This document shows positions 18,871 through 64,000 of a stretch of DNA of 64,000 nt, piece by piece. The position numbers and the translations under genes are program-made. The stretch comes from a virus, in IMG/VR virus record IMGVR_UViG_3300045988_060960; one strand, written 5' to 3'. Position 1 is the stretch's first letter; every line of letters starts with the position of its first letter. The notes below the pieces were generated by a model. The model ran no database searches and had not been told where the DNA came from. It saw nothing but the letters and a program-made list of their open reading frames with translations.

Positions 18871-18892
18871 CCATTTCAGTCATTTGTATCAC

Positions 18893-19311: not shown

Positions 19312-19360
19312 CCTTTCACCTCCTGAACTACTTTGCGGTGGGTTTCTTAACTTACGGTTT

Positions 19361-19455: not shown

Positions 19456-19482
19456 TGACTTTAAGGAAAGGTGGTGACACTT

Positions 19483-49050: not shown

Positions 49051-51171
49051 TTAAAAACCGCCGTATGTCAGGTAACAACGGCAGTTGATAAGCTCTTCCG
49101 GGCGAGGGTCCTGCGGATCACGCGGATAGCGCAAACCGTTAGAGAACCTGCCATCAATCGGCACGGTCTCGCCATTTAGGATTACATGGTTAGGTCCATT
49201 CGACCCGTCCCTCGGGTTTTTCTGTGGCCTGTGATGCCATGTTTTAGTTTTCGCGCCGGCAGATTTCATCATGTCAAACTGCCCTGTGGCCAGTGTCGTC
49301 ATGGTTTCTTGCCGCGCAATGGTTTTCACGCGGGCAGCAGACGCAAAATTCATCTCGTCCTTGATGTACTGTCGCAAGGTGGCTTGGCTCGAACCCTCCG
49401 CCACTCCGCGCGATATGATTTCCGCAATCTTACGCTTGGTGGCTTGTTCAATACCGACGATCCTTTGCCCGCCGTTCACCTTGGCGTGGGTTACGAATTC
49501 AGGCCGGTCCACTTCAGTGAGGTTGTAGATTTCCTCACTGATTTTTACGCCATCGGAGTAGGTTTTCCGCCAGATCGGGTTAAAAAGTTGAATCAACTTC
49601 TCGGCTTCAGCGTTCCAATCCAGCAGCCCATCGGCAATGGCCTCGGTGATCCGGCGCTGCTCATCTTCTGGCAGAGCGTCCCACAGGTCAGGGTCGAACA
49701 TACCGTCGTCTGTGAGGAACCGGGACAGTGCCTCGAATACGTCGTCTGCGACGGCCTTGCTCGTGAGGCCGAGAGCCTCTGACACAGCGTCGATCTGGTC
49801 GCGGAAGTGTTTGGTCACGGCAGCCTCGAAAAGCCGCACGTCGGCCCGCTCGGCCTCAGCTTCGCGGCGGACGAGAGCTTCGGGGTTTACTCTGGCCCTC
49901 TTTTTCTCTCCCCATCCCCAGGACTGCTGCAACGCAAGATCATCTTGGAGCATGGATTGAGAAACGTCAGCCATGCTGTCTGTTTCATTCAAGAACAGGT
50001 CGTTGATGGAAACTTTGAATACATTCCCACCTTCGATGTCGGGCATATCCAGAAGTCTCCGAGCCTCGTTCTGCATGAGCAGGCCGGAGTTCCAGCCGTC
50101 GAGAGCCTTTGCCTTATCGAACTCCTTATCGTAGGGAATCACAGGGTCAAATCGCCAGATAAGTCCGTCTCCGAACAGGGGGAGCAGCTGCTTGTTGATG
50201 GCTTCCTCACGCATTTTGATGCGCGGGGCGAGTACATTCTTGGCGTAGATATACTGCGCAGCGTCGGCAGTTGCGCGGTTGCTGTTCTCGGTGATGCCCA
50301 TGATCTCGCGCGGAACACCAAAGTGTTCCAGAACAGCATCTCGAATTGCGATGCGGCTTTCCACGAAGCTCAGGTTCTTTCCGTTGCTGCTCCCCAGTTC
50401 TTTCACATCTACACGGCCCGAAAAGGCAGCTGCTAGGTGGCTGTTCTCCACTCCGCGATGCTTCTGGTTCCAGCGGGCCAGAAAGGCATCCCGCTGGTCA
50501 TCCGTGGCATCCGGCATGAGGAATACCACCGGGGGCGTGGCGTCGTTGTAGAAGAAGCGCTTTTGGAACCTTGCGGCGTACTCGTCAATTTCGACCTCAT
50601 CAGCTATGCTCTCGGCAATACCGAGGCCGCGCAAGAACGGGTCGAGCGGGTTAAGCTGCTTCATCACGAACATATCATCGACGGGGACCTGCATTGTCAG
50701 CCCTCCGGGGGAGACAATGGTATAGGTTGGGCTGCCGAGATACGGCGTCATCTTTACCCAATGCGGGGGGACATTCCACAGCTCAACGGGACGATTCCGT
50801 TCATCCCGCTCGATAAGGAAAAAGCTCTCACCGACGAGCATCAGATAAATCTCATGTAGTCGCCAGATGGCGGAGCTGGTCATCTCGTACAGAGGGTTGG
50901 GCTGCTCCATGAAATCGAGAAAACGATGGCTCGTAATCTCAGTTTCTGTTCCGTCCTCCTCCACTTTCAACAGCTTCCCGCTGATGGTGGCAAGGTCGCT
51001 CGCAATACGGTCCACCACAGCAAGTCGAGGGCTTTTGGAGAACATATCCAGCCACTGCGCCGTGTTCAAAGAGGGCGGTCTCGCCCAGCGCGAAACGAAG
51101 TTATCCTTGGCGGTTTTCATATACTCGTCCCGGACACTTCGGCGCGTGATTTCAAGATTAAAGATTCTCAT
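49051..51171 (-). CDS. Portal protein fused to a MuF/SPP1 gp7-like head morphogenesis domain
   Basis: 706 aa. The N-terminal ~400 aa are portal-like. The C-terminus ARQETMTTLATGQFD...NGPNHVILNGETVPIDGRF...INCRCYLTY is MuF-like. Confidence 0.85.
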   Translation of the reverse strand: MRIFNLEITRRSVRDEYMKTAKDNFVSRWARPPSLNTAQWLDMFSKSPRLAVVDRIASDLATISGKLLKVEEDGTETEITSHRFLDFMEQPNPLYEMTSSAIWRLHEIYLMLVGESFFLIERDERNRPVELWNVPPHWVKMTPYLGSPTYTIVSPGGLTMQVPVDDMFVMKQLNPLDPFLRGLGIAESIADEVEIDEYAARFQKRFFYNDATPPVVFLMPDATDDQRDAFLARWNQKHRGVENSHLAAAFSGRVDVKELGSSNGKNLSFVESRIAIRDAVLEHFGVPREIMGITENSNRATADAAQYIYAKNVLAPRIKMREEAINKQLLPLFGDGLIWRFDPVIPYDKEFDKAKALDGWNSGLLMQNEARRLLDMPDIEGGNVFKVSINDLFLNETDSMADVSQSMLQDDLALQQSWGWGEKKRARVNPEALVRREAEAERADVRLFEAAVTKHFRDQIDAVSEALGLTSKAVADDVFEALSRFLTDDGMFDPDLWDALPEDEQRRITEAIADGLLDWNAEAEKLIQLFNPIWRKTYSDGVKISEEIYNLTEVDRPEFVTHAKVNGGQRIVGIEQATKRKIAEIISRGVAEGSSQATLRQYIKDEMNFASAARVKTIARQETMTTLATGQFDMMKSAGAKTKTWHHRPQKNPRDGSNGPNHVILNGETVPIDGRFSNGLRYPRDPQDPRPEELINCRCYLTYGGF

Positions 51172-51183: not shown

Positions 51184-52644
51184 TTAGAAATTGAAAGAGA
51201 AGCCGAACGGCTGCTTTTCTTCCAGTTCAAGGTAGGCGTTTGCTGACGCATCCACCATATCTTTCAGTTTCCCTACGGGGAAGTTTTCAAGCTGCCTGAA
51301 ATACTCGTCATTCCACTCTGCGAGTTTTACATCGACATTTCCGGCAAGCCACTGAGAGGAAAATGGTTCTGCTCTTGTTACCTTGTCTCCGCTTTCAAGC
51401 GAGGTGGTAACAGTGAAGCCTCCCAGCATTCTCACAAAGCTCTGGGCCTGATCCTTTCCAGCTTGTCCGGGGTCCTGCGGAAGTCGGATAGTCACATTTC
51501 CGTAGAGCGCATTGTCGCTCTGGGCAGTGTTCAGAATGAGTTGTCGCACATCAGCGCCGTTTTCGCGGACATTTATGACGTCCGCGACAAAGATCCGGCC
51601 ATTCTTTCTCTTTCCGAGAAGAACGCCTGCTGTATAAGCGCTGCTGTCGCTACGACTGTTTTTACGTAGAGCCTGCGGCAGTCCGTCAAGTTCGTCCACT
51701 TCACCGGGCGCCGTAGCGGCAAGGTCCCAAGCACGAACCCACCGAACAACGTCGGTAGGCACCGCATGGAACATCTGCCCGACTTTGGAGCGTTTGAAGT
51801 AATGCCCGGCGGATCTTCGGATTTTCCAGTTGCCGTTCAGCAGCTGTTCCTGGTCGAACTCAGACATCGCTCTCAGAGCGCCCATGTATCCAGGGTCGTG
51901 TTTCATCATGGCGGCGTTGTCCGTCAGCTTGGCGCTGATGAAGGATACGGACTTTACGTCTTCTTGCTCCTCCGGGGAATACAGACGGAAAGTTTCGTAC
52001 AGTTCCTGCGGAGTATCGGCCCAGTGGATGATGTTATTTCGCCGGACGAAGTATCGCAGCTTTCCGCATTTACTTTCGTCAGCGTACCCGGTTTCCGGGT
52101 CGATCCACCAGTCGATGAACTTCGCCACCCAGCTCTCGCCGTCAGGGTTGCAAGTGGCGCGGATATGCGGCTTTACGCCGCAGGTTGAGCGGTTACGAGA
52201 GAACATATAGAAAAACTGGCTCTCCGTGAAATGCACGAGTTCGTCGAACATCAGGAGCGGGATCTGAGAACCCTGCCAGTTGTATTTCTCTTTCTCGTAG
52301 AACATATGAGCGAACGTCACTTTGGCGCCAGACTGAAATCGCCACTGCACATTTGGCGTCAAAACGCTTGTCGCACCAAGATACGGATAGATCTCTTGGC
52401 TTGTGGCGTACAGACCGCCAGCGCTCATAATCTGCGGTCTGGACTGGCGGAATATTACGGCCTCGAACAGTTTGTTATCTACGTGCCGCAGACATTCAAG
52501 CAGCAGCGCAAAGGTCTTTCCGCCGCCCGCTGCGCCGCCATAAATACAAATGTCAGCCGGGGACCGCAGAAACATTTCCTGCTTTCCCTTTTGCGGGCGA
52601 ATAATTACCGGGCAGCTGCCGGAATCAGTCTTTCTTTTTGCCAT
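51184..52644 (-). CDS. terL: Terminase large subunit
   Basis: It has a Walker A motif (IYGGAAGGGKTFALL), LLMFDELVHF, and a C-terminal nuclease region. The ATG at 52644 follows GGAGG. Confidence 0.9.
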   Translation of the reverse strand: MAKRKTDSGSCPVIIRPQKGKQEMFLRSPADICIYGGAAGGGKTFALLLECLRHVDNKLFEAVIFRQSRPQIMSAGGLYATSQEIYPYLGATSVLTPNVQWRFQSGAKVTFAHMFYEKEKYNWQGSQIPLLMFDELVHFTESQFFYMFSRNRSTCGVKPHIRATCNPDGESWVAKFIDWWIDPETGYADESKCGKLRYFVRRNNIIHWADTPQELYETFRLYSPEEQEDVKSVSFISAKLTDNAAMMKHDPGYMGALRAMSEFDQEQLLNGNWKIRRSAGHYFKRSKVGQMFHAVPTDVVRWVRAWDLAATAPGEVDELDGLPQALRKNSRSDSSAYTAGVLLGKRKNGRIFVADVINVRENGADVRQLILNTAQSDNALYGNVTIRLPQDPGQAGKDQAQSFVRMLGGFTVTTSLESGDKVTRAEPFSSQWLAGNVDVKLAEWNDEYFRQLENFPVGKLKDMVDASANAYLELEEKQPFGFSFNF

Positions 52645-53059
52645 TCTCACCAACCTCCGAATCTCTCTCAGGCAGGTAAATCTGGACCTGCGGCTGGACA
52701 GAAAGGGGAGTTCCAGTGATCTTGGCCTCCACAGCTTTCCGGTCGTTGAAGAAGTCGCCGCCGTACACCTTCAAGGCATAAATTATGGCGGTCGTATCTC
52801 CACTCGACACGCGCTCCATCAATTTGTTCTGGCACATAGCCACAACGGCAAGACGGCCATTCTTGATGGCTTTCTCCAAAGCAGCGTGTTCTTTTTGGAG
52901 GTTTTGCAAGGTTCGTCTGGTGATGTCGAACACTTTCGCGATCTCATCCATCGACTTACCCTGCATGGCGAGGGACTGCACAATGGCGAGGTTGTTTTCA
53001 ACCTCGCCAGATTCTATCCACTGCTCGAACAGGTCCTTTCTCTTTTTCTCATTAGCCAT
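52625..53059 (-). CDS. terS: Terminase small subunit
   Basis: 144 aa. It has an HTH (GKSMDEIAKVFDITRRTLQNLQKEH) and sits immediately upstream of terL. Confidence 0.75.
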   Translation of the reverse strand: MANEKKRKDLFEQWIESGEVENNLAIVQSLAMQGKSMDEIAKVFDITRRTLQNLQKEHAALEKAIKNGRLAVVAMCQNKLMERVSSGDTTAIIYALKVYGGDFFNDRKAVEAKITGTPLSVQPQVQIYLPERDSEVGENGKKKD

Positions 53060-54455
53060 ACCTCTCCGCTACCTTTTCGATTAGGGCAGTCATAAGACCT
53101 ACGTGCTTGTTGTGCTTGAAGCCGCCGGGGTACTCGATGTTCAGCTCCTTTTCCAGATAAGTCTCATAGACTTCGTCGGGAAGCTGCTTGGGCTTCATGC
53201 AGGCGCAGTAGATATACCCAGCATTGCAGGCCAGAACGCCGACCTCATCGAAATAGTTTTCGAGGAGCGCAACATAGCTCTCACGGGTGTGGAACTTCTG
53301 CTTAAACACGATGCCGTTGGTGACGCCAAGCGTGTAGTTCTTGTCATCAAGATACCACAGGCAGTCACCCGCTCCGGCGGACAGCTTGGTTTTGTCGTAT
53401 GCCTTCTCAACATACGCAAGGTTTCTGGTGCAGGTAATCAGAACGCCGCTGGCTTTCAGAACGGCATTACAGGCGGTGAGAACCGCCTTCTCGAACTCAT
53501 CGTCCACGACAGAGTTGATTACGGCTTCCAGAACGCAGTAATCGAACAATCCGTCTGTGCGGACGTGCCGCTCGGCGCTCAGAATGTTGGCGATGATGCC
53601 CTTCATGTCCAGCTTGTTCGCGCCCTTCACCATAAGGGACGGCTCATACGCATGAATGTCGTAGCCCTTGGATTTCAGCAGCTTCACATAGGCCATGCGC
53701 CCCGCCCCGATGTCGATGATACTGTCCGACCGCTGCAAGCGTGGAATCAGGTACTTCTCATACAGGACAGAAGAATTGGACTGCCGGCCATCCGTACTCA
53801 GGCGCTTGGGCTGCGCAAGGAACTGGTGGTAGGTCTGAACACCGAGATTGTCGAAGTTGTACTTGCCGTACTCGACGCCCATACATTCGAGGAACTCGGC
53901 AACATCCTCGTTTTGGATGGCGTAGCACAGAACGCCGTAGCCCAGCTTCTTGGAGCAGTAGGCATACTCGGAGTTGAGGATGACATTGCCATCCCCATCC
54001 GTAACAACACTGCCCCACTCGCCGTAGCGGGACATCAGCTTGGTGATCTCCGAGCACACGAGAACATTCTGCGGCTCGCTCTCGATCTTGATTTTGTCCG
54101 AGGGGCAATAGTGGTAGCCGCCCACCGTGAACTCCTCGATGCGAACCGTGGTTTTGCTGGTCTCAATCGAGTTGTGCATCAGGTTGAACAGAATCTCGTC
54201 CTGAAGATTGGGGCTTTTGATTCTGATACAAGGCAGGTACTCCAAGCCGATGGCAGTGGCCGCCTTCTTTCTCTGGTGGCCGGCGGTGATGACATTGTTG
54301 GTGGAGTTGACAATCAGGGGCTTAACCATGCCAAACCGACGGATGCTGTGCTGAAGGGCTTCCAGCGCCTCTGGCGTGATGGAGCGGGGGTTGTACTCTG
54401 ATCCGGTTACTTCGTCGATCGGAACCTTCTCCACGAAATCAATCACGGTTTTCAA
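53052..54455 (-). CDS. ParB-N (ParB/Srx-like) domain fused to a class I SAM-dependent methyltransferase
   Basis: N-terminus: EYNPRSITPEALEALQHSIRRFGMVKPLIVN..ITAGHQRKKAA. C-terminus: motif I IIDIGAGRMAY, acidic post-I HAYEPS, motif II FDYCVLEAVINSV. I saw no [DNS]PP[YFW] tetrad anywhere in the 467 aa. Confidence 0.8.
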   Translation of the reverse strand: MKTVIDFVEKVPIDEVTGSEYNPRSITPEALEALQHSIRRFGMVKPLIVNSTNNVITAGHQRKKAATAIGLEYLPCIRIKSPNLQDEILFNLMHNSIETSKTTVRIEEFTVGGYHYCPSDKIKIESEPQNVLVCSEITKLMSRYGEWGSVVTDGDGNVILNSEYAYCSKKLGYGVLCYAIQNEDVAEFLECMGVEYGKYNFDNLGVQTYHQFLAQPKRLSTDGRQSNSSVLYEKYLIPRLQRSDSIIDIGAGRMAYVKLLKSKGYDIHAYEPSLMVKGANKLDMKGIIANILSAERHVRTDGLFDYCVLEAVINSVVDDEFEKAVLTACNAVLKASGVLITCTRNLAYVEKAYDKTKLSAGAGDCLWYLDDKNYTLGVTNGIVFKQKFHTRESYVALLENYFDEVGVLACNAGYIYCACMKPKQLPDEVYETYLEKELNIEYPGGFKHNKHVGLMTALIEKVAERYG

Positions 54456-55296
54456 CCCCCTTCAGAAGATAATTCGCAAAGCTCTCCGCCAGAATTGCGC
54501 CAGAGTCGATGTACTCCTTGTACTTCTCGTTCAGCCGGTCCATCTCCACCTGGGAGATGAAGAACGACACATCGCCGAACCGGAACTGACAGAACGGAAG
54601 AGCTGCTTTGGATTCCTTTTTCTGAGGCTCGTCATCGGCTTCGGGGGCCTCATAGGACGCTGCGTTTTCGGCTGCGGGAACGGAAGCGGCGGGCACATCA
54701 GGCTGGGACGCCAGCGTGGGATAGGAAACCTCCGGCGTCGGGGCCGTATCAACTTCATCATACCCGCCCGCAACTGCATCATTTTCTGCGTTGATGATGG
54801 AATTGCTGTCAACGGTGTGGACGGTGGGCTTCTTGGCCTTGGGCTTGTCGTTTACGCCCATGAAGTTGAAAGCCGGAATCTTGATCTCAGCCTGCTCCGG
54901 CTCGATGTCAAACACCTCGGTGCTCAGCTCGAAGCGATCCAACAGCAGCTGGTTCTTGTCAAGCGTGAGGTCAACGAGGGACAGTTCTTCTTTCAGCTTC
55001 TCAAAGTCCCAGTCGCTGTACTCGCTGGTTTTGTTGTCAACCAGTCGGAACAGATTGATCTGCTCCTCAGACAGCTCATCTGCGACGATGCAGGGAACAG
55101 TCTGGATTCCCATTTCACGGCAGGCCCGCACACGGGTGTGACCGCACACGATTGTGTAATTCATGTCGATAACAACCGGGAACAAGAAGCCGAACCGCTC
55201 GATGCTGTATTTCACCTTCTCTACGGCAAGGTCGTTGTTTCGCGGGTTGTTCTCATATTCCCGCAGACGGGATACGGAAACTTCTCTGATGTTCAT
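54439..55296 (-). CDS. ParB-N domain protein (285 aa)
   Basis: LREYENNPRNNDLAVEKVKYSIERFGFLFPVVID..IVCGHTRVRACREMG. The C-terminal motif FRFGDVSFF...RLNEKYKEYI is shared with the next gene. Confidence 0.8.
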   Translation of the reverse strand: MNIREVSVSRLREYENNPRNNDLAVEKVKYSIERFGFLFPVVIDMNYTIVCGHTRVRACREMGIQTVPCIVADELSEEQINLFRLVDNKTSEYSDWDFEKLKEELSLVDLTLDKNQLLLDRFELSTEVFDIEPEQAEIKIPAFNFMGVNDKPKAKKPTVHTVDSNSIINAENDAVAGGYDEVDTAPTPEVSYPTLASQPDVPAASVPAAENAASYEAPEADDEPQKKESKAALPFCQFRFGDVSFFISQVEMDRLNEKYKEYIDSGAILAESFANYLLKGVENRD

Positions 55297-55820
55297 TCTG
55301 CATTACCTCCCGTCAGATACAGGACAAAACCAAGGTAGGTCTTGTTCTTTTCGATATACGCGTCGTATACGGCCTTCAGGCGGGCGTATTCTTCTTCGGA
55401 CAGCGGAAGTTCTGTGCTGCCGAAAATGAGGCATTTGTGCTCAGTGAAGAACTTTCTGTCCCTGTTCGGCGTGAAGAAGGTGGTCTTGAAATCCATGCCG
55501 ATGCCGCTCAGCTCTTTGTGCAGCTTACCGACATCCCACGTGGAATACTCGTGGCTCTTGTTGTCGATGATCCGGGCCAACTTGGCATCTTCCTCAGACA
55601 TTTCCTGAACAATGCAGGGAACCTCGGTCATTCCAAGCCGTTTCGCGGCCTTCAATCTGGTGTGGCCGGAGATGATGACATTATTCGCGTCGATAGTGAT
55701 AGGGTTGAGGAATCCGAACTCGCGGATGCTTTCTGCAACCTTCGCGACACCGCCATCATTCCGGCGGGCATTTCCCTCGTATTCAACGAGTTCATCTACC
55801 CGCTTGTAAACAATTTCCAT
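55293..55820 (-). CDS. ParB-N domain protein (175 aa)
   Basis: LVEYEGNARRNDGGVAKVAESIREFGFLNPITID..IISGHTRLKAAKRLG. The C-terminal motif is LIFGSTELP...RLKAVYDAYI. Confidence 0.8.
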   Translation of the reverse strand: MEIVYKRVDELVEYEGNARRNDGGVAKVAESIREFGFLNPITIDANNVIISGHTRLKAAKRLGMTEVPCIVQEMSEEDAKLARIIDNKSHEYSTWDVGKLHKELSGIGMDFKTTFFTPNRDRKFFTEHKCLIFGSTELPLSEEEYARLKAVYDAYIEKNKTYLGFVLYLTGGNAE

Positions 55821-55840: not shown

Positions 55841-55880
55841 GAGCATAAAAAATGGGAGCCTTTCAGAACGGAAGGCTCCC
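55841..55880 (-). terminator. Rho-independent terminator after the SAM synthetase gene
   Basis: On the minus strand, the 9-bp stem GGGAGCCTT / AAGGCTCCC has a 9-nt loop and is followed by ATTTTTT. Confidence 0.7.
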
Positions 55881-55905
55881 AAATTTATCAGGTATTCAGT
55901 TTCCG

Positions 55906-56700
55906 TTAAAACAGGCCCCACTCAGCGAACTTTTCAAAACCGCCGCAGTTCTTGATAAACTCTCTGGCGATCTCAACGATTTCGCTGTAAGGCTTCCCGT
56001 CAACCTCGTCGTCGCCGATGGCGCAGAACAGCTTGACCGGCTTGCCGGTATGCTGCGCTTTGAGGAAAGCGTAAATATTGACGGACACATCCGCCTTGGA
56101 CAGGTCCTTTCCGTGCAGCCCGCCGCCCGTGACAGAATCAGCCATGTCAGAGCCGAGCTTTCGGTTAGTTGCTCCGGTATCAACATCCGTTCCGCCAGTC
56201 CAGTCGCCGAGCGGGTTGATCTCGGCGGTGGGGTACATCTTTTCGAGGTCTGCCTTCGCAGCGTTGCTCTGGCAGATAATGAGCTGATCTTCGCTCTTGA
56301 TATACTTGCCGTCAAACGGATAGGCTGCATAGATGTCGTGGGCAATCGCGGAGAGCGTCTTCTGCTCCTCCGTGAGCGGCATCCCTTTGAAGATACCGTT
56401 GTCGCCGCAGTGAACACCCCGCTCCTGATTTCCTGCGAGGTGTACATCCTGCGGGACGATAACGAGGTCGATCTGCACGAAGCCAGCGATGCGGCGGATC
56501 GCGTTGTGGATTGCAACGACAACTTCGGGCATAAGAAGCGGCGCCGAAGTCTCGACAACCGCATGGCATACGCCGTGGCCCACCAGAACCTCAACCGCGA
56601 TTTTGGGGTCGGGCTGTACCTGATAGGCAATGTCTACGATCGCGCCGGCAATCCGGTCTGCGATTTTGTCCGGGTGGGACGGATTTACTTTCTCAATCAT
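55906..56700 (-). CDS. Miniature S-adenosylmethionine synthetase (MAT/MetK-like, 264 aa)
   Basis: SHPDKIADRIAGAIVD (compare GHPDKICDQISDA), CGDNGIFKG (compare GDQGLMFGY), and TGATNRKLGSD...GGGLHGKDLSKADVSVN (compare TGRK...GGGAFSGKDPSKVDRSA). Confidence 0.8.
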   Translation of the reverse strand: MIEKVNPSHPDKIADRIAGAIVDIAYQVQPDPKIAVEVLVGHGVCHAVVETSAPLLMPEVVVAIHNAIRRIAGFVQIDLVIVPQDVHLAGNQERGVHCGDNGIFKGMPLTEEQKTLSAIAHDIYAAYPFDGKYIKSEDQLIICQSNAAKADLEKMYPTAEINPLGDWTGGTDVDTGATNRKLGSDMADSVTGGGLHGKDLSKADVSVNIYAFLKAQHTGKPVKLFCAIGDDEVDGKPYSEIVEIAREFIKNCGGFEKFAEWGLF

Positions 56701-56704: not shown

Positions 56705-57541
56705 TCAGTTCCTTTGCTTTATTTTTTCGTTCCCGTTGAGAGGCGGCCCGAGGAGGTCGCAATCCACGTCAGGAGCGGGCTGAACATAGCCGTAGTGGTT
56801 TGCATAACAGTAGGCGCAGCCGTTGCTGCAAGTGCTGTACGCACCGATATCGACGCTCTCAACGCATTGGCAAAGGCCGCGCTGGTTGCGGTCCTTTGGC
56901 TTGTCAACGCCAAACATTTTTCCATCGACGCAGCAAGAATGGGGTATTCCCAAATCCTCTGCGCAGGAACTTAAAACGATCCCGTGCTGCCGTGCAATCT
57001 CGAAAAGTTCCTGCGCAAATTCGCGCTGCTGCTCCGGCGACAAGGGCTGTATTTTGAGCGGTCGGAGGTCTACGCTTCGGTAGGAATCGACGAAGCTCAT
57101 CACCGCCTTATACGTGTGGCCTTCGAGCGCCTCCGCGATTTTGGTAAAAGCCCTGACGTGATAATCCCAGGTGTATTTCTCATTCAGAAAGACGGGATCG
57201 TAACGCCAGATGGCCTTATCCGCCCCGATCTTTTTGAACGCCGGAATAACAATCTCGTTCTTATCGGGAATATTCCGCTCCACATCCCGGCCATACGGGG
57301 TGATGGTGTACTGGAAATAATATTTGAACGCATCCAGCTCGTGAATTCTATCGAGCATGGGGGCTGCGTTTTTGGTCCAAAAAACAAACCCATCTACTTT
57401 GTCGGGCGTGAGGGATACACGCCCGACTTGTAGAGGGTTGTATGGGTTTCTAAGGAGGACAAATCCCTTACCCACGCGGTTGTAAAACCACTCGGAGAAC
57501 AAAGCCGGGATGTCCGTCCGTCTACTTGCGCTCACGATCAT
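56705..57541 (-). CDS. DUF1848-like protein with a C-terminal Cys cluster (putative Fe-S, radical-SAM-like)
   Basis: The N-terminus is MIVSASRRTDIPALFSEWFYNRV and the C-terminus is GLCQCVESVDIGAYSTCSNGCAYCYANH. Start set at 57541 (ATGA overlap with the upstream gene). The track ORF extends further by read-through. Confidence 0.8.
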   Translation of the reverse strand: MIVSASRRTDIPALFSEWFYNRVGKGFVLLRNPYNPLQVGRVSLTPDKVDGFVFWTKNAAPMLDRIHELDAFKYYFQYTITPYGRDVERNIPDKNEIVIPAFKKIGADKAIWRYDPVFLNEKYTWDYHVRAFTKIAEALEGHTYKAVMSFVDSYRSVDLRPLKIQPLSPEQQREFAQELFEIARQHGIVLSSCAEDLGIPHSCCVDGKMFGVDKPKDRNQRGLCQCVESVDIGAYSTCSNGCAYCYANHYGYVQPAPDVDCDLLGPPLNGNEKIKQRN

Positions 57542-58008
57542 AATGGCATCCCATCCTTCAAGTAATTCGCAAATATCCAGTTTCGGCAGGTCCGCTGAGA
57601 CTTTGTATAAACTCCGGGCGGATTCGGAACATAGTCCCAGAAGTGAATTCTGCGGGCGTTTGTGATGTCGAGCTTGATTCTGTCGTTTTCGATGTGAACT
57701 TCCGAATTGCTGTCCGGCACAAACGCGACGTGCGTATTCAACTCCCACACAAAACCATCGCTCAGCCCGCAAAGATAATACGCTTTCGCTCGCGGGCTTT
57801 GCCCCACCATGATGTCAACAACGGCCTGCGATTTGTGCAGTGTTCCGTAGTAGACCCGGTTGTCCTTCTCGCCGATAAAACACTTGGCGCAGCATTGCGA
57901 GATGTCAACGTCCCGAATGTCTCGGAGCCAGAAGAAATTGCATTTCTTCCGAATCTCCAATCGCAGGTGCATCGGCGCGTGTGTAACTATGAAATCCGAT
58001 GGTATCAT
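57538..58008 (-). CDS. Cys-containing 145-aa family protein, paralog 3 of 3
   Basis: MHLRLEIRKKCNFFWLRDIR..CCAKCFIG..AYYLCGLS..NTHVAFVP..TCRNWIFANY. The likely true start is the ATG at 57972, because the ATG at 58008 lies inside the -10 box. Confidence 0.8.
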   Translation of the reverse strand: MIPSDFIVTHAPMHLRLEIRKKCNFFWLRDIRDVDISQCCAKCFIGEKDNRVYYGTLHKSQAVVDIMVGQSPRAKAYYLCGLSDGFVWELNTHVAFVPDSNSEVHIENDRIKLDITNARRIHFWDYVPNPPGVYTKSQRTCRNWIFANYLKDGMPL

Positions 58009-58036
58009 TATAGCACCCCCTTAAATGACAGGTCAA
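58007..58036 (-). promoter_or_regulatory. Candidate promoter TTGACC-18-TATAAT for the three-gene SAM cassette
   Basis: On the minus strand, TTGACC is at 58036-58031 and TATAAT at 58012-58007. Confidence 0.45.
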
Positions 58037-58440
58037 TGACAGCTTTGTGACACGACGGAGACCCCTTGAATTTCAGGGTTCTGCGCCATGATCCAGTTCC
58101 CGAACTCGGTCAGGATCACCTCGCAGGGGCAAGAAAGCGCCGGCAAGAACTCCACGCCGGTCTCACTCATCGCACTGCGAACCGCAATGAACTCGCGGTC
58201 ATACCCGCTCACACGAGTTCTGGAAACCTTGGCTCGGTCGCCGTGGTCAGTGAAGCTCTCGAACAATGCGTGAGCGAGCGGATTTCCGGCGCTCAGCGAT
58301 TCACCCACAGTGAGCCGAGCTAAAACAACTTTGTAGCCTCCCGGAACAGTACCGACGAGGGTGTATTCACTGACGTTGCTCACGTAGTTCGGGAGAGGAT
58401 TGCCGCCCTCAAAGGGCTGCGGAATAAAATTCTTAATCAT
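58033..58440 (-). CDS. Hypothetical protein
   Basis: 135-aa ORF that overlaps its neighbours. Confidence 0.6.
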   Translation of the reverse strand: MIKNFIPQPFEGGNPLPNYVSNVSEYTLVGTVPGGYKVVLARLTVGESLSAGNPLAHALFESFTDHGDRAKVSRTRVSGYDREFIAVRSAMSETGVEFLPALSCPCEVILTEFGNWIMAQNPEIQGVSVVSQSCH

Positions 58441-58681
58441 CGTTGTCTACAACCTCCACAAAAGTATTTTCATCTTCGCAGTCCAGAGCGAGCATCAGGT
58501 CTGTATAGCTGGCGTTCTGAATTTCGATGGAACGCGAATTGGTGAGATCGCGTACCGTGATTTTCCGAGTGGGATGAAGGGCAGATACGAGATCAACCAG
58601 GTATTTCAAAACGCAGCAAACCAGAACCGTAAAACCGAGCCAGATCCAGAAGCTCGAAAAGATAAACTTAATAAATTCCAT
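58433..58681 (-). CDS. Small membrane protein (82 aa)
   Basis: The ATG overlaps the upstream stop. The product begins MEFIKFIFSSFWIWLGFTVLVCCVL. Confidence 0.55.
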   Translation of the reverse strand: MEFIKFIFSSFWIWLGFTVLVCCVLKYLVDLVSALHPTRKITVRDLTNSRSIEIQNASYTDLMLALDCEDENTFVEVVDNDD

Positions 58682-59223
58682 CACACGTTTCCTCCTCCAA
58701 CTGTTGAATCGTGCCACTGCAAACCGCGCTTTTTGTAAAGCGGAATCCAATGTTCGGCGTAGAAATCATAACCGGCTCCGTCGATTCCGAAGAAGTACCC
58801 CCACTCATCGTGGTGATAAATTCGGAATCCGCAGTCCGACATCGCACGAATGCCATCCTCATTTTCGAGCCAGTAATCATCGCAGGAATCTCCGAAGCTC
58901 CACATCGTTCCCCACATGGGGAGCGGATCATCGTTTGCCAATTCCAGATTATCCGGTTCTACGAGGATGGAAGGTCCTCCATCCAGATCCACACGGTACT
59001 TGTCGATCTCCGCGGAATACGCGACGACCTCGCCGAGATGTTCCAGCGTGTCACAATTTTCGGGCAGATCGAATACGTAAACCCGCCTGCCGGCACTGGG
59101 AAACGTCAGCTCCTCCCACTCCTCGCACTTAGACTGCATGAGCCGCTCAATCATACCCTGCGGAATGGCATTGAACTCGCGGACCCATTTTTGAGTGGCG
59201 TCATTTATAGATAAGCCTTTCAT
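58681..59223 (-). CDS. Hypothetical conserved phage protein
   Basis: 180 aa. It has a PMWGTMWSF...GIDGAGYDFYAEHWIPLYKKRGLQWH block. I recall the pattern from phage proteins of unknown function. Confidence 0.65.
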   Translation of the reverse strand: MKGLSINDATQKWVREFNAIPQGMIERLMQSKCEEWEELTFPSAGRRVYVFDLPENCDTLEHLGEVVAYSAEIDKYRVDLDGGPSILVEPDNLELANDDPLPMWGTMWSFGDSCDDYWLENEDGIRAMSDCGFRIYHHDEWGYFFGIDGAGYDFYAEHWIPLYKKRGLQWHDSTVGGGNV

Positions 59224-59238
59224 GTCCTTTTCACCTCC

Positions 59239-59940
59239 TTACAGTTCATACTCTTTGGGTCGCCCAGCCTTTCCCTTGTACCGAACGCTGGGACGCACCC
59301 ACACAGTTTTGCCGGACTTGTAATGCCGCAAGTGGCCTCTGATATTGACCTCGTGCTCAGGCTTGGTATACTTGCGCTTGGCGCCTTCCGGCTTCGGCAA
59401 ATCCTCCGGCTGGAAATCGCCGAGCGTGTAGATGCGTCGGATGAGGGGCTGCGGTCGCCGTATGTGGCGGCCTTTTTTCTTGGACTTCGCAGGTCGATGC
59501 TCCGTTCGCTGCTCGACCTTGACCACCTCCCGGTAGTGGGTCATAAACAGCATCAGCGCGTGATACTTCTGCGCCTCTTTCCGGCACATATTGTCCGACA
59601 TGACGAGCACATTGAGCAGCTCCAAATCCACCGCAGTCTGACTACCTGCCGGAGCCACCCGGCGGTTTCGGATTTCGGTGGTCTCCGGGTCATAGTCGAA
59701 CGCCACGATGGGCGGGAGGTTCGGCTTCGTTGTGACATACACAACGATCTCCGCGAAGCTGCCCTTGCTCTCGAACGTGAACTCGACCTGCTCCTCGCAA
59801 AGTTCCACAACACCGGATTCCATAGGGGCCAGAAATTTCTCGCGGTCGAGCCAGTTGAAGTTCTCGAAGTACCAATCGAGAACCAGCTGCATACGAGCGT
59901 TGCTCTTAACAATGATGCGATCAGCCGAGTTCCTGTTCAC
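59239..59940 (-). CDS. Hypothetical protein with a basic C-terminus
   Basis: 233 aa. A GTG start follows GGAGGG. Confidence 0.65.
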   Translation of the reverse strand: MNRNSADRIIVKSNARMQLVLDWYFENFNWLDREKFLAPMESGVVELCEEQVEFTFESKGSFAEIVVYVTTKPNLPPIVAFDYDPETTEIRNRRVAPAGSQTAVDLELLNVLVMSDNMCRKEAQKYHALMLFMTHYREVVKVEQRTEHRPAKSKKKGRHIRRPQPLIRRIYTLGDFQPEDLPKPEGAKRKYTKPEHEVNIRGHLRHYKSGKTVWVRPSVRYKGKAGRPKEYEL

Positions 59941-59943
59941 AGG

Positions 59944-60561
59944 TCAACCCTCCAATCTGGTGCTCCACCGAGCAGCTTTTTCGCGGATGAACCGCTCAAC
60001 TTCATCCTGGTCCAATCCCAAAGCTGCCGCGCACACAACCACATCGGCGAACTCCTCATTCAAAGCGCGGGACGCCTCACTCGTACTGACCGGGGTGCGG
60101 TTGCGCTTGTCAATAGTTCTGCGCAACTTCAGTGCGGCCTGAGACAATTCAGCGGCTTCCTCTGCCAGCCCTGCCAGAAGCTCACAGCAGCCAAGCAAAG
60201 TGTGTACTTCCGCAAGCTCACGGCCCCAGTCTTCGAGAGCCTTTTCGATACTTACCTCCGGGCGAATTACCTCGCGGATAATCTCTACCCGAAGGCAGCC
60301 CTCGATATCCTCCGATTCGTCGGCATGGTCATAATCAGCGAGCTTAACTTTCAGAGCCAGATCCCGAGACGGGATGAAAGCATCCACAATGGAGGGGATG
60401 CAGCTGAACCCGTTGTCGGTGTTCCAGCAGACTGCGAAGTCCTTCCCGCTTTGCCGCAGAACGTAGCACAGCTCGTTCAGCGAGCGAGGGTTGCTCTTGG
60501 CGAGGAGCGGGTGCTTTGCAAACTCCTCGTCAAGCCAGGTCTTGAATTGCTCAATATTCAT
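59944..60561 (-). CDS. MazG-like nucleotide pyrophosphohydrolase domain protein
   Basis: The C-terminal half LLAGLAEEAAELSQAALKLRR...LNEEFADVVVCAAALGLD matches the MazG EExxE/helical pattern. The ATG at 60561 follows AAAAGGAGGA. Confidence 0.65.
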   Translation of the reverse strand: MNIEQFKTWLDEEFAKHPLLAKSNPRSLNELCYVLRQSGKDFAVCWNTDNGFSCIPSIVDAFIPSRDLALKVKLADYDHADESEDIEGCLRVEIIREVIRPEVSIEKALEDWGRELAEVHTLLGCCELLAGLAEEAAELSQAALKLRRTIDKRNRTPVSTSEASRALNEEFADVVVCAAALGLDQDEVERFIREKAARWSTRLEG

Positions 60562-60585
60562 CTCATGTCCTCCTTTTTTGGGCAA

Positions 60586-60615
60586 TAGAAAAAGGCCCGC
60601 CGGTTTGGCGGGCCT
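60586..60615 (-). terminator. Rho-independent terminator (minus strand), mirrored at 60868-60897
   Basis: The 9-bp stem AGGCCCGCC / GGCGGGCCT is followed by a T-run on the minus strand. Confidence 0.6.
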
Positions 60616-60921
60616 CTCGGTATAGGCAAATTCAGCTATCTATCAAGGTGGAAACTATACCAAAAAGTCTTTTGGACTTCAATGTATCACCGCCTATTCG
60701 CAATCTTTATGTCACAGAACAGCCATTAGTCACACGGGGTATACCCCGTGTGACTAATGGCTGTTCTGTGACATAAAGATTGCGAATAGGCGGTGATACA
60801 TTGAAGTCCAAAAGACTTTTTGGTATAGTTTCCACCTTGATAGATAGCTGAATTTGCCTATACCGAGAGGCCCGCCAAACCGGCGGGCCTTTTTCTATTG
60901 CCCAAAAAAGGAGGACATGAG

Positions 60922-61539
60922 ATGAATATTGAGCAATTCAAGACCTGGCTTGACGAGGAGTTTGCAAAGCACCCGCTCCTCGCCAAGAGCAACCCTCGCT
61001 CGCTGAACGAGCTGTGCTACGTTCTGCGGCAAAGCGGGAAGGACTTCGCAGTCTGCTGGAACACCGACAACGGGTTCAGCTGCATCCCCTCCATTGTGGA
61101 TGCTTTCATCCCGTCTCGGGATCTGGCTCTGAAAGTTAAGCTCGCTGATTATGACCATGCCGACGAATCGGAGGATATCGAGGGCTGCCTTCGGGTAGAG
61201 ATTATCCGCGAGGTAATTCGCCCGGAGGTAAGTATCGAAAAGGCTCTCGAAGACTGGGGCCGTGAGCTTGCGGAAGTACACACTTTGCTTGGCTGCTGTG
61301 AGCTTCTGGCAGGGCTGGCAGAGGAAGCCGCTGAATTGTCTCAGGCCGCACTGAAGTTGCGCAGAACTATTGACAAGCGCAACCGCACCCCGGTCAGTAC
61401 GAGTGAGGCGTCCCGCGCTTTGAATGAGGAGTTCGCCGATGTGGTTGTGTGCGCGGCAGCTTTGGGATTGGACCAGGATGAAGTTGAGCGGTTCATCCGC
61501 GAAAAAGCTGCTCGGTGGAGCACCAGATTGGAGGGTTGA
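60922..61539 (+). CDS. Mirror copy of the MazG-like gene
   Basis: Its translation is identical to 59944-60561. Confidence 0.5.
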   Translation: MNIEQFKTWLDEEFAKHPLLAKSNPRSLNELCYVLRQSGKDFAVCWNTDNGFSCIPSIVDAFIPSRDLALKVKLADYDHADESEDIEGCLRVEIIREVIRPEVSIEKALEDWGRELAEVHTLLGCCELLAGLAEEAAELSQAALKLRRTIDKRNRTPVSTSEASRALNEEFADVVVCAAALGLDQDEVERFIREKAARWSTRLEG

Positions 61540-61542
61540 CCT

Positions 61543-62244
61543 GTGAACAGGAACTCGGCTGATCGCATCATTGTTAAGAGCAACGCTCGTATGCAGCTGG
61601 TTCTCGATTGGTACTTCGAGAACTTCAACTGGCTCGACCGCGAGAAATTTCTGGCCCCTATGGAATCCGGTGTTGTGGAACTTTGCGAGGAGCAGGTCGA
61701 GTTCACGTTCGAGAGCAAGGGCAGCTTCGCGGAGATCGTTGTGTATGTCACAACGAAGCCGAACCTCCCGCCCATCGTGGCGTTCGACTATGACCCGGAG
61801 ACCACCGAAATCCGAAACCGCCGGGTGGCTCCGGCAGGTAGTCAGACTGCGGTGGATTTGGAGCTGCTCAATGTGCTCGTCATGTCGGACAATATGTGCC
61901 GGAAAGAGGCGCAGAAGTATCACGCGCTGATGCTGTTTATGACCCACTACCGGGAGGTGGTCAAGGTCGAGCAGCGAACGGAGCATCGACCTGCGAAGTC
62001 CAAGAAAAAAGGCCGCCACATACGGCGACCGCAGCCCCTCATCCGACGCATCTACACGCTCGGCGATTTCCAGCCGGAGGATTTGCCGAAGCCGGAAGGC
62101 GCCAAGCGCAAGTATACCAAGCCTGAGCACGAGGTCAATATCAGAGGCCACTTGCGGCATTACAAGTCCGGCAAAACTGTGTGGGTGCGTCCCAGCGTTC
62201 GGTACAAGGGAAAGGCTGGGCGACCCAAAGAGTATGAACTGTAA
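61543..62244 (+). CDS. Mirror copy of the 233-aa hypothetical protein
   Basis: Its translation is identical to 59239-59940. Confidence 0.5.
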   Translation: MNRNSADRIIVKSNARMQLVLDWYFENFNWLDREKFLAPMESGVVELCEEQVEFTFESKGSFAEIVVYVTTKPNLPPIVAFDYDPETTEIRNRRVAPAGSQTAVDLELLNVLVMSDNMCRKEAQKYHALMLFMTHYREVVKVEQRTEHRPAKSKKKGRHIRRPQPLIRRIYTLGDFQPEDLPKPEGAKRKYTKPEHEVNIRGHLRHYKSGKTVWVRPSVRYKGKAGRPKEYEL

Positions 62245-62259
62245 GGAGGTGAAAAGGAC

Positions 62260-62802
62260 ATGAAAGGCTTATCTATAAATGACGCCACTCAAAAATGGGT
62301 CCGCGAGTTCAATGCCATTCCGCAGGGTATGATTGAGCGGCTCATGCAGTCTAAGTGCGAGGAGTGGGAGGAGCTGACGTTTCCCAGTGCCGGCAGGCGG
62401 GTTTACGTATTCGATCTGCCCGAAAATTGTGACACGCTGGAACATCTCGGCGAGGTCGTCGCGTATTCCGCGGAGATCGACAAGTACCGTGTGGATCTGG
62501 ATGGAGGACCTTCCATCCTCGTAGAACCGGATAATCTGGAATTGGCAAACGATGATCCGCTCCCCATGTGGGGAACGATGTGGAGCTTCGGAGATTCCTG
62601 CGATGATTACTGGCTCGAAAATGAGGATGGCATTCGTGCGATGTCGGACTGCGGATTCCGAATTTATCACCACGATGAGTGGGGGTACTTCTTCGGAATC
62701 GACGGAGCCGGTTATGATTTCTACGCCGAACATTGGATTCCGCTTTACAAAAAGCGCGGTTTGCAGTGGCACGATTCAACAGTTGGAGGAGGAAACGTGT
62801 GA
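62260..62802 (+). CDS. Mirror copy of the 180-aa hypothetical protein
   Basis: Its translation is identical to 58681-59223. Confidence 0.5.
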   Translation: MKGLSINDATQKWVREFNAIPQGMIERLMQSKCEEWEELTFPSAGRRVYVFDLPENCDTLEHLGEVVAYSAEIDKYRVDLDGGPSILVEPDNLELANDDPLPMWGTMWSFGDSCDDYWLENEDGIRAMSDCGFRIYHHDEWGYFFGIDGAGYDFYAEHWIPLYKKRGLQWHDSTVGGGNV

Positions 62803-63050
62803 TGGAATTTATTAAGTTTATCTTTTCGAGCTTCTGGATCTGGCTCGGTTTTACGGTTCTGGTTTGCTGCGTTTTGAAATACCTGGTTGATCTCGTATCT
62901 GCCCTTCATCCCACTCGGAAAATCACGGTACGCGATCTCACCAATTCGCGTTCCATCGAAATTCAGAACGCCAGCTATACAGACCTGATGCTCGCTCTGG
63001 ACTGCGAAGATGAAAATACTTTTGTGGAGGTTGTAGACAACGATGATTAA
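62802..63050 (+). CDS. Mirror copy of the small membrane protein
   Basis: Its translation is identical to 58433-58681. Confidence 0.45.
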   Translation: MEFIKFIFSSFWIWLGFTVLVCCVLKYLVDLVSALHPTRKITVRDLTNSRSIEIQNASYTDLMLALDCEDENTFVEVVDNDD

Positions 63051-63450
63051 GAATTTTATTCCGCAGCCCTTTGAGGGCGGCAATCCTCTCCCGAACTACG
63101 TGAGCAACGTCAGTGAATACACCCTCGTCGGTACTGTTCCGGGAGGCTACAAAGTTGTTTTAGCTCGGCTCACTGTGGGTGAATCGCTGAGCGCCGGAAA
63201 TCCGCTCGCTCACGCATTGTTCGAGAGCTTCACTGACCACGGCGACCGAGCCAAGGTTTCCAGAACTCGTGTGAGCGGGTATGACCGCGAGTTCATTGCG
63301 GTTCGCAGTGCGATGAGTGAGACCGGCGTGGAGTTCTTGCCGGCGCTTTCTTGCCCCTGCGAGGTGATCCTGACCGAGTTCGGGAACTGGATCATGGCGC
63401 AGAACCCTGAAATTCAAGGGGTCTCCGTCGTGTCACAAAGCTGTCATTGA
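63043..63450 (+). CDS. Mirror copy of the 135-aa hypothetical protein
   Basis: Its translation is identical to 58033-58440. Confidence 0.5.
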   Translation: MIKNFIPQPFEGGNPLPNYVSNVSEYTLVGTVPGGYKVVLARLTVGESLSAGNPLAHALFESFTDHGDRAKVSRTRVSGYDREFIAVRSAMSETGVEFLPALSCPCEVILTEFGNWIMAQNPEIQGVSVVSQSCH

Positions 63451-63474
63451 CCTGTCATTTAAGGGGGTGCTATA

Positions 63475-63945
63475 ATGATACCATCGGATTTCATAGTTAC
63501 ACACGCGCCGATGCACCTGCGATTGGAGATTCGGAAGAAATGCAATTTCTTCTGGCTCCGAGACATTCGGGACGTTGACATCTCGCAATGCTGCGCCAAG
63601 TGTTTTATCGGCGAGAAGGACAACCGGGTCTACTACGGAACACTGCACAAATCGCAGGCCGTTGTTGACATCATGGTGGGGCAAAGCCCGCGAGCGAAAG
63701 CGTATTATCTTTGCGGGCTGAGCGATGGTTTTGTGTGGGAGTTGAATACGCACGTCGCGTTTGTGCCGGACAGCAATTCGGAAGTTCACATCGAAAACGA
63801 CAGAATCAAGCTCGACATCACAAACGCCCGCAGAATTCACTTCTGGGACTATGTTCCGAATCCGCCCGGAGTTTATACAAAGTCTCAGCGGACCTGCCGA
63901 AACTGGATATTTGCGAATTACTTGAAGGATGGGATGCCATTATGA
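63475..63945 (+). CDS. Mirror copy of the Cys-containing family protein (paralog 3)
   Basis: Its translation is identical to 57538-58008. Confidence 0.5.
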   Translation: MIPSDFIVTHAPMHLRLEIRKKCNFFWLRDIRDVDISQCCAKCFIGEKDNRVYYGTLHKSQAVVDIMVGQSPRAKAYYLCGLSDGFVWELNTHVAFVPDSNSEVHIENDRIKLDITNARRIHFWDYVPNPPGVYTKSQRTCRNWIFANYLKDGMPL

Positions 63946-64000
63946 TCGTGAGCGCAAGTAGACGGACGGACATCCCGGCTTTGTTCTCCGAGTGGTTTTA
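63942..64000 (+). CDS. Mirror copy of the DUF1848-like gene, 5' fragment truncated by the window end
   Basis: It begins ATGATCGTGAGCGCAAGTAGACGG = MIVSASRR. Confidence 0.5.
   Translation, partial: MIVSASRRTDIPALFSEWF

Follow-up and report, generated by a model that had tools for sequence, protein, structure and literature searches.

A 64,000-nucleotide (nt) stretch of viral DNA (IMG/VR virus record IMGVR_UViG_3300045988_060960; "the window", in whose numbering all coordinates are given) encodes, beside its terminase genes, a protein in which a ParB-N domain is fused to a class I S-adenosylmethionine (SAM) methyltransferase. We found that this methyltransferase is of the small-molecule type and lacks the catalytic tetrad of amino-methyltransferases, both in the window and throughout its family. 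The domain fusion has already been catalogued; the protein described here is a variant of the ParB-linked modification enzymes that belongs to another catalytic class, carries a degenerate second ParB-like domain, and has a dedicated partner protein of unmatched fold. We propose tentatively, with confidence that falls slightly short of even, that these genes form a ParB-assisted, late-expressed SAM methyltransferase module that places a mark other than N6-methyladenine (m6A), N4-methylcytosine (m4C), or 5-methylcytosine (m5C) on the phage's own double-stranded DNA (dsDNA) around packaging. The analysis drew on the list of open reading frames (ORFs) in the window and on Pfam, PHROG, PADLOC, NCBIfam, and PDB comparisons of the proteins that they encode.

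The methyltransferase half is of a small-molecule type

To describe the methyltransferase half, we used an alignment of 73 family members that share 26–44% identity with the window protein. The three motifs that the original prediction had read as a Rossmann-fold signature (IIDIGAG, HAYEPS, and FDYCVLEAVINSV) fall on the most conserved columns of this alignment. Asp245, Gly247, and Gly249 of motif I (IIDIGAG) are invariant, Glu268 of HAYEPS, which follows β2, is 97% conserved, and Asp302, Asn311, and Ser312, in the third segment around β4, are among the most conserved positions. The SAM motifs (D245/G247/G249, E268, and D302) are 95–100% conserved overall, and Arg341, Asp367, and Gln383 are also invariant or nearly so. 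The reported lack of any PP dipeptide in the 467-amino-acid (aa) ORF product, and with it of a [DNS]PP[YFW] tetrad, was likewise correct, and it extends to the relatives: [DNS]PP[YFWH] is absent from 72 of the 73 members, and its sole occurrence sits outside the methyltransferase domain. A catalytic cysteine is not apparent either, as no column of the methyltransferase domain exceeds 56% Cys across the 73 members and the window protein has Leu at that position. A hidden amino- or C5-methyltransferase motif was thus rejected after a search across the family.

All 73 members match Methyltransf_23 (PF13489; best E 1.6e-16), and none matches N6_N4_Mtase (PF01555) or the C5 DNA_methylase (PF00145). 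The window protein alone scores 23.8 bits against Methyltransf_23, under the 27-bit cut-off; since it is sub-threshold, its assignment as a Methyltransf_23/UbiG-type enzyme is drawn from the family matches, from the family profile, which finds UbiG structures at 1e-8, and from the fold search. An AlphaFold2 (AF2) model of the fusion protein (pLDDT 93.9, pTM 0.91) was compared with the PDB and gave a Foldseek probability of 1.00 to GSMT, GNMT, TcaB9, and METTL6. The HMM and structure comparison that had been put forward as a check on the original prediction returned no canonical amino-methyltransferase motif in the family, and by motif, Pfam, and fold the methyltransferase half is neither an N6/N4 amino-methyltransferase nor a C5 enzyme; its nearest relatives are UbiG, glycine/sarcosine N-methyltransferases, sugar C-methyltransferases, and METTL6. 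That the enzyme acts on a different acceptor atom or substrate, as had been suggested, is a fair inference. With UbiG, the glycine/sarcosine N-methyltransferases, and the dTDP-sugar C-methyltransferases it has in common the Rossmann fold, a GxGxG motif I, an acidic residue after β2, and an FDxV...LxxV β4; however, identities to the UbiG-type enzymes are 12–19%, whole-model TM-scores are low, the substrate-binding parts differ, and these enzymes carry no fused ParB fold. One PADLOC match, to mad2, a predicted N6-methyltransferase (2.5e-5), was set aside as uninformative, as it spans only the generic SAM-binding part.

Domain architecture of the fusion protein

The fusion gene (minus strand, 53052–54446) encodes a ParB-N domain, a degenerate ParB-like domain, and a class I SAM methyltransferase domain, and its product matches phrog_5475, a family of "unknown function", collinearly and over its full length (residues 9–446, E 1.3e-65). 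The original prediction had the protein right and its length probably wrong: it was given as 467 aa, from TTG 54455, while more than 100 homologues are 464 aa long and a GTG at 54446 has GAAGGGGG in front of it. The true start is probably this GTG, three codons inside the longer ORF.

Domain 1 (aa 1–97; 54156–54446, minus strand) has the ParB-N/CTPase fold, with the motifs YNPR, AGHQR, and DEIxFNxxHN nearly invariant across the family. Within it Gly56 and Arg59 are invariant and Arg21 is 98% conserved in the fusion family, and the glutamate of the GERR motif is replaced by His (GHxR). On the strength of these residues and of the conserved SAM motifs, the nucleoside triphosphate (NTP) pocket of the ParB-N domain is apparently intact and the catalytic domain apparently active.

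Domain 2 (aa ~98–200; 53847–54155, minus strand) is a degenerate ParB/Srx-like domain, recognized by profile-profile comparison and by the order of its structural elements in the AF2 model. Against the profile of the short-ParB N-domains described below, hhalign aligned 59 collinear columns (Prob 88%, E 3.2e-6), with GHxR lost, and residues ~100–190 of the model repeat the strand/helix order of residues 1–93. Similarity to the fusion's own domain 1 is weak (E 3–5e-4), and no second ParB-N match in the middle domain was significant by plain HMM (best i-E 0.018). We consider a degenerate ParB/Srx fold probable for this domain, which, together with the small partner protein at 57538–58008, is an addition to what had been predicted.

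Domain 3 (aa ~201–464; 53055–53846, minus strand) is the Methyltransf_23/UbiG-like Rossmann methyltransferase identified by the family Pfam, profile, and fold matches. It contains a β-hairpin insert and two C-terminal helices, and has no DPPY-type motif and no catalytic Cys.

The short ParB and ParB-methyltransferase form a conserved pair

In the window the fusion gene is preceded by two genes for shorter ParB-N proteins, so that three consecutive minus-strand ORFs of 175, 285, and 467 aa occupy 53052–55820. Neighbors overlap by 4 nt (175- and 285-aa genes) and by 8 nt (285-aa and fusion genes). The claim that each of three overlapping genes carries a ParB-N domain was borne out by the coordinates and by Pfam, in which ParB_N scores of 36.9 (175-aa protein, ParB175), 37.4 (285-aa protein, ParB285), and 40.3 bits (fusion) all exceed the gathering score of 26.3 (E 3e-10 to 4e-9). 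Each protein matches many PHROG "ParB-like" families, and structures of Spo0J, ParB, and Noc are matched by profile at 6e-14 to 1e-8. The motif pattern proposed for these domains held for the domain as such, though not in every detail: Box II reads GHQR, GHTR, and GHTR and Box I reads NPR, NPR, and NAR in the fusion, ParB285, and ParB175, respectively. ParB175 thus departs from the NPR of the pattern, and PVV stands in ParB285 where the pattern has P[IL][IV].

ParB175 (55293–55820, minus strand; ParB_N 3.9e-9, phrog_620 5.7e-44) is acidic, with an isoelectric point (pI) of 5.7, and combines the NAR and GHTR motifs with a C-terminal domain of the form LIFG-x12-RL-x3-Y-x2-YI...GFVLYL. ParB285 (54439–55296, minus strand; ParB_N 2.6e-9) is 50% identical to it over 110 aa of the ParB-N domains (E 3e-34), and the C-terminal motif aligns as well. 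This motif, [LF]xFG-x12-RL-x3-Y-x2-YI continuing as GF..L, had been noted in both short proteins and proved to be kept in distant loci (Yersinia, Bacteroides, and Streptomyces-type phages). In ParB285 an acidic Pro/Ala-rich low-complexity insert (residues ~150–230), which ParB175 does not have, separates the ParB-N and C-terminal domains.

The ParB-N domains of the window belong to the subtype that is fused to DNA methylases. They match the N-terminus of phrog_498, "DNA methyltransferase" (5.5e-33 and 2e-32), and that of the PADLOC MTase_II model (1e-20), and the variants GH[GQ]R, N[PA]R, and DN[KR] are common to them and to the ParB-N6_N4 fusions of sister phages.

An exhaustive search with fusion residues 100–467 yielded 316 clusters at 50% identity, almost all 455–480 aa long and with the same layout; among 150 listed representatives, 133 have ParB-N followed by the methyltransferase, and 16 have the methyltransferase domain only and are mostly fragments. 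A scan of IMG/VR found 388 loci encoding relatives, of which 80 were retrieved and, with three cultured-phage loci, gave 83 loci for comparison. An independent set of 74 bacterial genome or metagenome-assembled genome (MAG) loci was collected with a search pattern derived from a 12-sequence alignment, which samples only the LDSVLNS subgroup. The host records of the genome loci include Akkermansia, Kitasatospora/Streptomyces, Lachnospiraceae, Turicibacter, Ignavibacteria, Bacteroidota, Melainabacteria, Acidobacteriota, Spirochaetes, Myxococcota, and Cetobacterium, and cultured carrier phages infect Yersinia, E. coli, Bacteroides, and Brochothrix. Among these carriers are Yersinia phage vB_YpM_44, Bacteroides phage BS-TP3, and Brochothrix phage BtpYZU02.

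Prophages of about nine bacterial phyla carry the module, and what is conserved throughout this range is the pair of a single short ParB and the ParB-methyltransferase. A short ParB gene ends at the start of the fusion gene in every one of the 83 loci that has enough upstream flank. The window clade (L004–L031) is alone in having two short ParBs, other loci having one; the triplet is thus, from the distribution of these genes, a clade-specific duplication of the short ParB partner. The suggestion that triplicated ParB-N domains direct the chemistry of a neighboring SAM cassette to DNA is therefore not supported in that form, as the third ParB is peculiar to this clade.

In six loci from Melainabacteria/Gastranaerophilales MAGs (L101, L104, L113, L115, L133, and L134) the searched flanks of the ParB-methyltransferase gene contain no short ParB and no small partner; hence, the fusion may work alone in some lineages. 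The enterobacterial form of the module, seen in E. coli phage vB_EcoM-613R2 (L003), consists of the short ParB, the ParB-methyltransferase, and a 239-aa hypothetical protein that replaces the small partner, and a second short ParB lies immediately upstream of terL in this phage. The same module is more than 99% conserved on 47–48 kb plasmids (e.g., NZ_CP048340.1) in 71 of 5426 complete E. coli genomes. Such plasmids, probably phage-plasmids, offer a possible experimental model.

Phage records label proteins of this kind "ParB-like partition protein", and together with the plasmid location of the E. coli homologs this could be taken to mean that they are ordinary partition ParBs of a plasmid-like prophage. 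We regard this as scarcely credible, and plasmid partition is essentially excluded: matches to TIGR00180 reach 30.2–40.6 bits against a cut-off of 58.45 and cover the N-domain only, Pfam finds no helix-turn-helix (HTH) in any of the three proteins, and there is no ParA among the scanned neighboring genes and no parS array nearby. In addition, the window phage integrates via a serine recombinase, and the genes lie inside a packaging operon.

A small conserved partner protein

Four genes upstream of the fusion gene, the window encodes a 156-aa protein, orf156 (57538–58008, minus strand), whose homologs occur in 65 of the 83 loci from viruses and reference phages; of the 58 genome loci with at least 1.5 kb of downstream flank, 43 have one. 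It accompanies the ParB-methyltransferase in about 75–85% of loci, and in most distant ones it lies directly downstream of the fusion gene. Trp27, Leu28, Cys40, Tyr78, Cys80, Asn91, His93, Cys141, Arg142, and Asn143 are invariant, the last three within the motif TCRNWQFA, which gives the protein a Cys3His signature. The AF2 model (pLDDT 91.8) is a basic β-sandwich with a C-terminal helix.

The fold of orf156 has no match among solved structures. No sequence or profile match was obtained in Pfam, PHROG, NCBIfam, PADLOC, or the PDB; Foldseek gave no significant PDB match (best E 0.03, TM at most 0.3), and a search of BFVD found only two uncharacterized relatives. A single-sequence tblastn search against cultured-phage records was also without match, and no Rosetta-stone fusion of the ParB-methyltransferase to orf156 occurs among the 150 listed representatives. 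All 541 homologs are named "hypothetical", and many are copies in Streptomyces/Kitasatospora prophages. Family-wide, the methyltransferase domain and the small partner are basic (median pI 8.8 and 8.6, respectively), while the short ParBs are acidic (4.7).

The module adjoins packaging genes of several types

The 3' end of the fusion gene overlaps by 8 nt the start of the terminase small subunit gene, terS (52625–53059, minus strand; phrog_309 3.7e-17, HTH_28), and in the window the ParB-methyltransferase gene is translationally coupled to terS. The terminase large subunit gene, terL (51184–52653, minus strand), carries the Terminase_6N/6C domains of Pfam and is followed by a portal/MuF gene (49051–51171) in the ORF list. 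The proposed link to packaging was upheld in the form of conserved synteny with Terminase_6- and GpA-type terminases and lambda-type portals, as the module invariably adjoins packaging genes, in three terminase/portal arrangements of unrelated phages. It lies upstream of terS and a Terminase_6 terL in the window clade and in Streptomyces-type loci, between a GpA-type terL and a lambda-type portal in L047–L065, and upstream of a GpA-type terL in L032–L036. The module genes are co-oriented with the terminase genes.

This tight placement beside terminases of several families could also mean that the ParB domains are the working part, acting as NTP-regulated nicking or DNA-processing aids to the terminase at pac or cos sites, with the methyltransferase serving as a SAM sensor or supplying a minor activity. 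HNH proteins, which assist some terminases, provide a model for such a role. The replacement of the GERR glutamate by His (GHxR) is shared with ParB-type nucleases, a PDB entry titled "ParB domain protein nuclease" (5k5d) is matched at 1e-3, and the ParB-methylase Bce_0392 has been reported to nick DNA, as cited by Iyer et al. (PMC5512222), who summarize reports of nicking by ParB domains. We nevertheless judge this explanation quite improbable. Conservation in the family is among the highest at the SAM-binding residues, which speaks for catalysis; most phages with the same terminase types lack the module, so that it does not answer a general packaging need; and no parS- or pac-like repeats were found in the 52.4–58.1 kb region around the genes.

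DUF1848, MetK, and an intervening hairpin

Upstream of the ParB genes the window encodes a DUF1848 protein (56705–57541, minus strand; 278 aa from the ATG at 57541) and a short MetK-like SAM synthetase (55906–56700, minus strand; 264 aa). The DUF1848 protein (PF08902 1.7e-87) matches the PADLOC model RTasDUF1848, a DRT-associated model, at 1e-39; it has no PHROG family, and only eight uncultured-phage records matched it. It carries a C-terminal CSNGCAYC (CX3CX2C) of the radical-SAM type, yet it has no Radical_SAM Pfam match and no PDB relative by sequence. The SAM synthetase (S-AdoMet_synt_N 2.4e-10, phrog_1569 1.9e-66, and PDB MetK matches) is shorter than the cellular enzymes of about 385–400 aa but keeps the HPDK and GGxxxGKDxSKxD regions.

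An intrinsic-terminator-like hairpin (55846–55881, minus strand) separates MetK from the first ParB gene; it is composed of a 10-bp GC-rich stem and a U-run and is followed by a GGAGG ribosome-binding site. It was missed by a simple terminator scan, probably because its loop exceeds 8 nt. The hairpin is present in 18 of 19 distinct folded intergenic sequences of related loci, being absent only in L026, and in clade members without MetK it stands between DUF1848 and the first ParB gene. Its stems vary in sequence among relatives yet always pair, which argues for a real terminator. The position of the hairpin suggests that the three ParB genes open the terminase transcription unit and that DUF1848 and MetK close the preceding one.

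Among ParB-methyltransferase loci, viral and genomic, DUF1848 and MetK are confined to the window clade. In four other phage contigs DUF1848 has no ParB, Methyltransf_23, partner-protein, or MetK neighbors, and we rejected it as a general ParB partner on these grounds. Orthologs of the short MetK with 63–73% identity occur in Streptococcus Javan, Terrisporobacter, and Oscillospiraceae phages. In these sister phages the order is MetK, a canonical ParB-N+N6_N4_Mtase fusion that matches PF01555, sometimes a C5 methylase, and the terminase; phage Phi1207.3 has the same MetK / ParB-methylase / terminase organization (PMC4260502). The company of ParB-N6_N4 methylases indicates that MetK is a generic companion of ParB-linked methylases, and the slot between MetK and the terminase is a DNA-methylation slot in this phage lineage. 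The tie between the ParB genes and the SAM cassette is consequently not supported as originally envisaged: the cassette is restricted to one clade, is separated from the ParB genes by the hairpin, and consists of a DUF1848 that lacks ParB neighbors in the other phage contigs and a MetK that is a generic partner of ParB-linked methylases. Short MetK orthologs are also found in Gardnerella phages, directly upstream of ParB-N6 DNA methylases.

Relation to known ParB-linked modification systems

The fusion type had been flagged as unusual. It is real, though not new: Kaljevic et al. (PNAS 2025, PMC12704722) catalogued phage-enriched fusions of the ParB-CTPase fold to Methyltransf_23 (PF13489) without a function, loosely terming the phage fusion a "predicted DNA methyltransferase" on the basis of domain co-occurrence only. 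The window protein belongs to this group, sharing both its domain combination and its enrichment in phages and prophages. The internal degenerate ParB, the short ParB partner, the small Cys3His partner, and the terminase link go beyond that survey and are first described here.

The fusions of ParB-N to N6_N4 methylases (phrog_498; Phi1207.3 orf32; Streptococcus Javan; B. cereus Bce_0392) have the same GH[GQ]R subtype of ParB-N and occupy the same slot between MetK and the terminase. These enzymes, however, match PF01555, contain a DPPY-type motif, and methylate exocyclic amino groups, whereas the window fusion is UbiG/Methyltransf_23-like, lacks the motif, and has an extra pseudo-ParB domain and separate ParB paralogs. 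All characterized ParB-linked phage methylases are, to our knowledge, amino-methyltransferases.

DpdB, in the DNA 7-deazaguanine system, and DndB, in the phosphorothioate system, are ParB/Srx-fold NTPases that work with DNA-modifying enzymes; both belong to other ParB subfamilies and have other partner enzymes than this module. The window module has no sequence match to Dnd or Dpd, and PADLOC called neither. DndB is also mentioned in the 2025 survey (PMC12704722).

Another parallel is provided by O'Toole et al. (PNAS 2026, PMC13229309), who found that the thymine dioxygenase 5mYOX176 requires a phage ParB without a DNA-binding domain to act on dsDNA, and that terminases are frequent neighbors of ParB-dependent dioxygenase systems. 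There too, a short phage ParB with a nucleotide-binding and a C-terminal domain and no DNA-binding domain (ParB176) lies by a modification enzyme, often near a terminase; that enzyme is an Fe(II)/2-oxoglutarate dioxygenase that is not fused to ParB, whereas here it is a ParB-fused methyltransferase. No TET/JBP-type dioxygenase domain was found in the module or the scanned neighbors, and the 83 loci contain no such conserved cluster.

A proposed function for the module

The equivalence of the DNA-methylase slot, the ParB-N subtype, the packaging synteny, the basic methyltransferase and partner, and the precedent of 5mYOX176 all counted in favor of a module whose ParB-assisted methyltransferase targets the DNA of the phage itself. 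In such a mechanism the ParB-N domains would assemble into an NTP-gated complex in which the fusion pairs with the short ParB or its ParB-N domain pairs with the internal pseudo-ParB domain; the latter might replace the second subunit of a ParB N-domain dimer. By analogy with the ParB-like activator of 5mYOX176, this complex could load the methyltransferase onto duplex DNA or activate it there, with the short ParB(s) as activator or loader and the small basic protein as a putative accessory that aids substrate binding. In the window clade MetK would raise the SAM supply, and the radical-SAM-like DUF1848 protein may add a separate or preparatory chemistry. The DNA substrate, the NTP gating, and the roles of the partner proteins are what we infer from these comparisons.

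Several observations weigh against a DNA substrate. No DNA methyltransferase is among the best 50 PDB fold matches, and the closest methyltransferase relatives work on small molecules, sugars, proteins, or tRNA. Pfam and NCBIfam scans reveal no recognizable HTH or similar DNA-binding domain in any module protein, and the window fusion protein itself is acidic (pI 5.8). Known hypermodification enzymes, such as dioxygenases or glycosyltransferases, are not among the conserved neighbors in the 83 loci. Adjacency to the terminase is a correlation, and the terminase-adjacent site is a common home of phage accessory genes.

The main rival is accordingly a methyltransferase whose substrate is not DNA; a nuclease or packaging-accessory role is a lesser one. 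Methyl transfer would then go to RNA, to a nucleotide or another small molecule, or to a protein such as the terminase, portal, capsid, or a host factor. ATP/CTP-dependent regulation or substrate binding, rather than loading onto DNA, would be the task of the ParB folds, as in Srx/SerK, and the function could lie in anti-defence or virion maturation. We place this on the unlikely side, though well above the nicking and partition explanations. The nearest relatives of the catalytic domain, UbiG (1e-8), Rickettsia protein-lysine methyltransferase 2, the glycine/sarcosine N-methyltransferases, the dTDP-sugar C-methyltransferases, and METTL6, suit it, as do the weak SerK/Srx matches and the lack of a DNA-binding domain in the scans above. 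The ParB fold is a general binder of NTPs (CTP, ATP, or GTP), with ATP bound by its bacterial fusions to SAM methyltransferases; the authors of the survey that reports this propose anti-defence or phage-host roles (PMC12704722). In contrast, the ParB-N subtype is the one found on DNA amino-methylases, bona fide DNA methylases fill the same slot in sister phages, expression with the late packaging genes ill suits an early anti-defence role, and the methyltransferase domain and partner are basic family-wide.

A bolder version of the DNA-methyltransferase proposal, which we find doubtful, is that the short ParB, the ParB-pseudoParB-methyltransferase, and the Cys3His protein constitute a previously unrecognized NTP-gated, packaging-tied DNA modification system, spread across about nine phyla and extended by DUF1848 in this clade. 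The methyl mark would then differ chemically from m6A, m4C, and m5C; it could, for instance, be an O-, C-, or ring-N-methylation or be placed on a base that already carries a modification.

DNA modifications govern the escape of phages from restriction and other defences and are a source of biotechnology tools. If the substrate is DNA, a ParB-assisted enzyme of the small-molecule type could introduce a novel type of DNA mark; if it is not, the module would show the ParB NTP switch put to a new purpose. With 316 clusters and 388 IMG/VR loci, from Akkermansia and Streptomyces to E. coli, this is a large family, and its partner has a fold without a solved-structure match. Carriers among E. coli phage-plasmids and among cultured phages of Yersinia, Bacteroides, and Brochothrix make the question directly testable.

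Other features of the window

The window phage is a gut prophage. Its plus-strand replication/integration block (8238–21727) is typical of temperate Firmicutes phages and holds a DUF2800/PD-(D/E)XK nuclease, an Enc34-type single-stranded DNA-binding protein, a family A DNA polymerase, a VapE-like primase-helicase, an SNF2 helicase, and a large serine recombinase. A 213-aa protein encoded at 59944–60585 (minus strand) has no Pfam match, and its C-terminal part matches MazG-like nucleoside triphosphate pyrophosphohydrolase PHROGs (1.6e-7). The end of the contig is a perfect inverted repeat, in which 57483–60741 and 60742–64000 form 3259-nt arms that are 100% complementary and have no spacer; it looks like a fold-back assembly artefact. 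All ORFs past 60741 mirror those of 57483–60741, including a second copy of the small-partner gene at 63475–63945.

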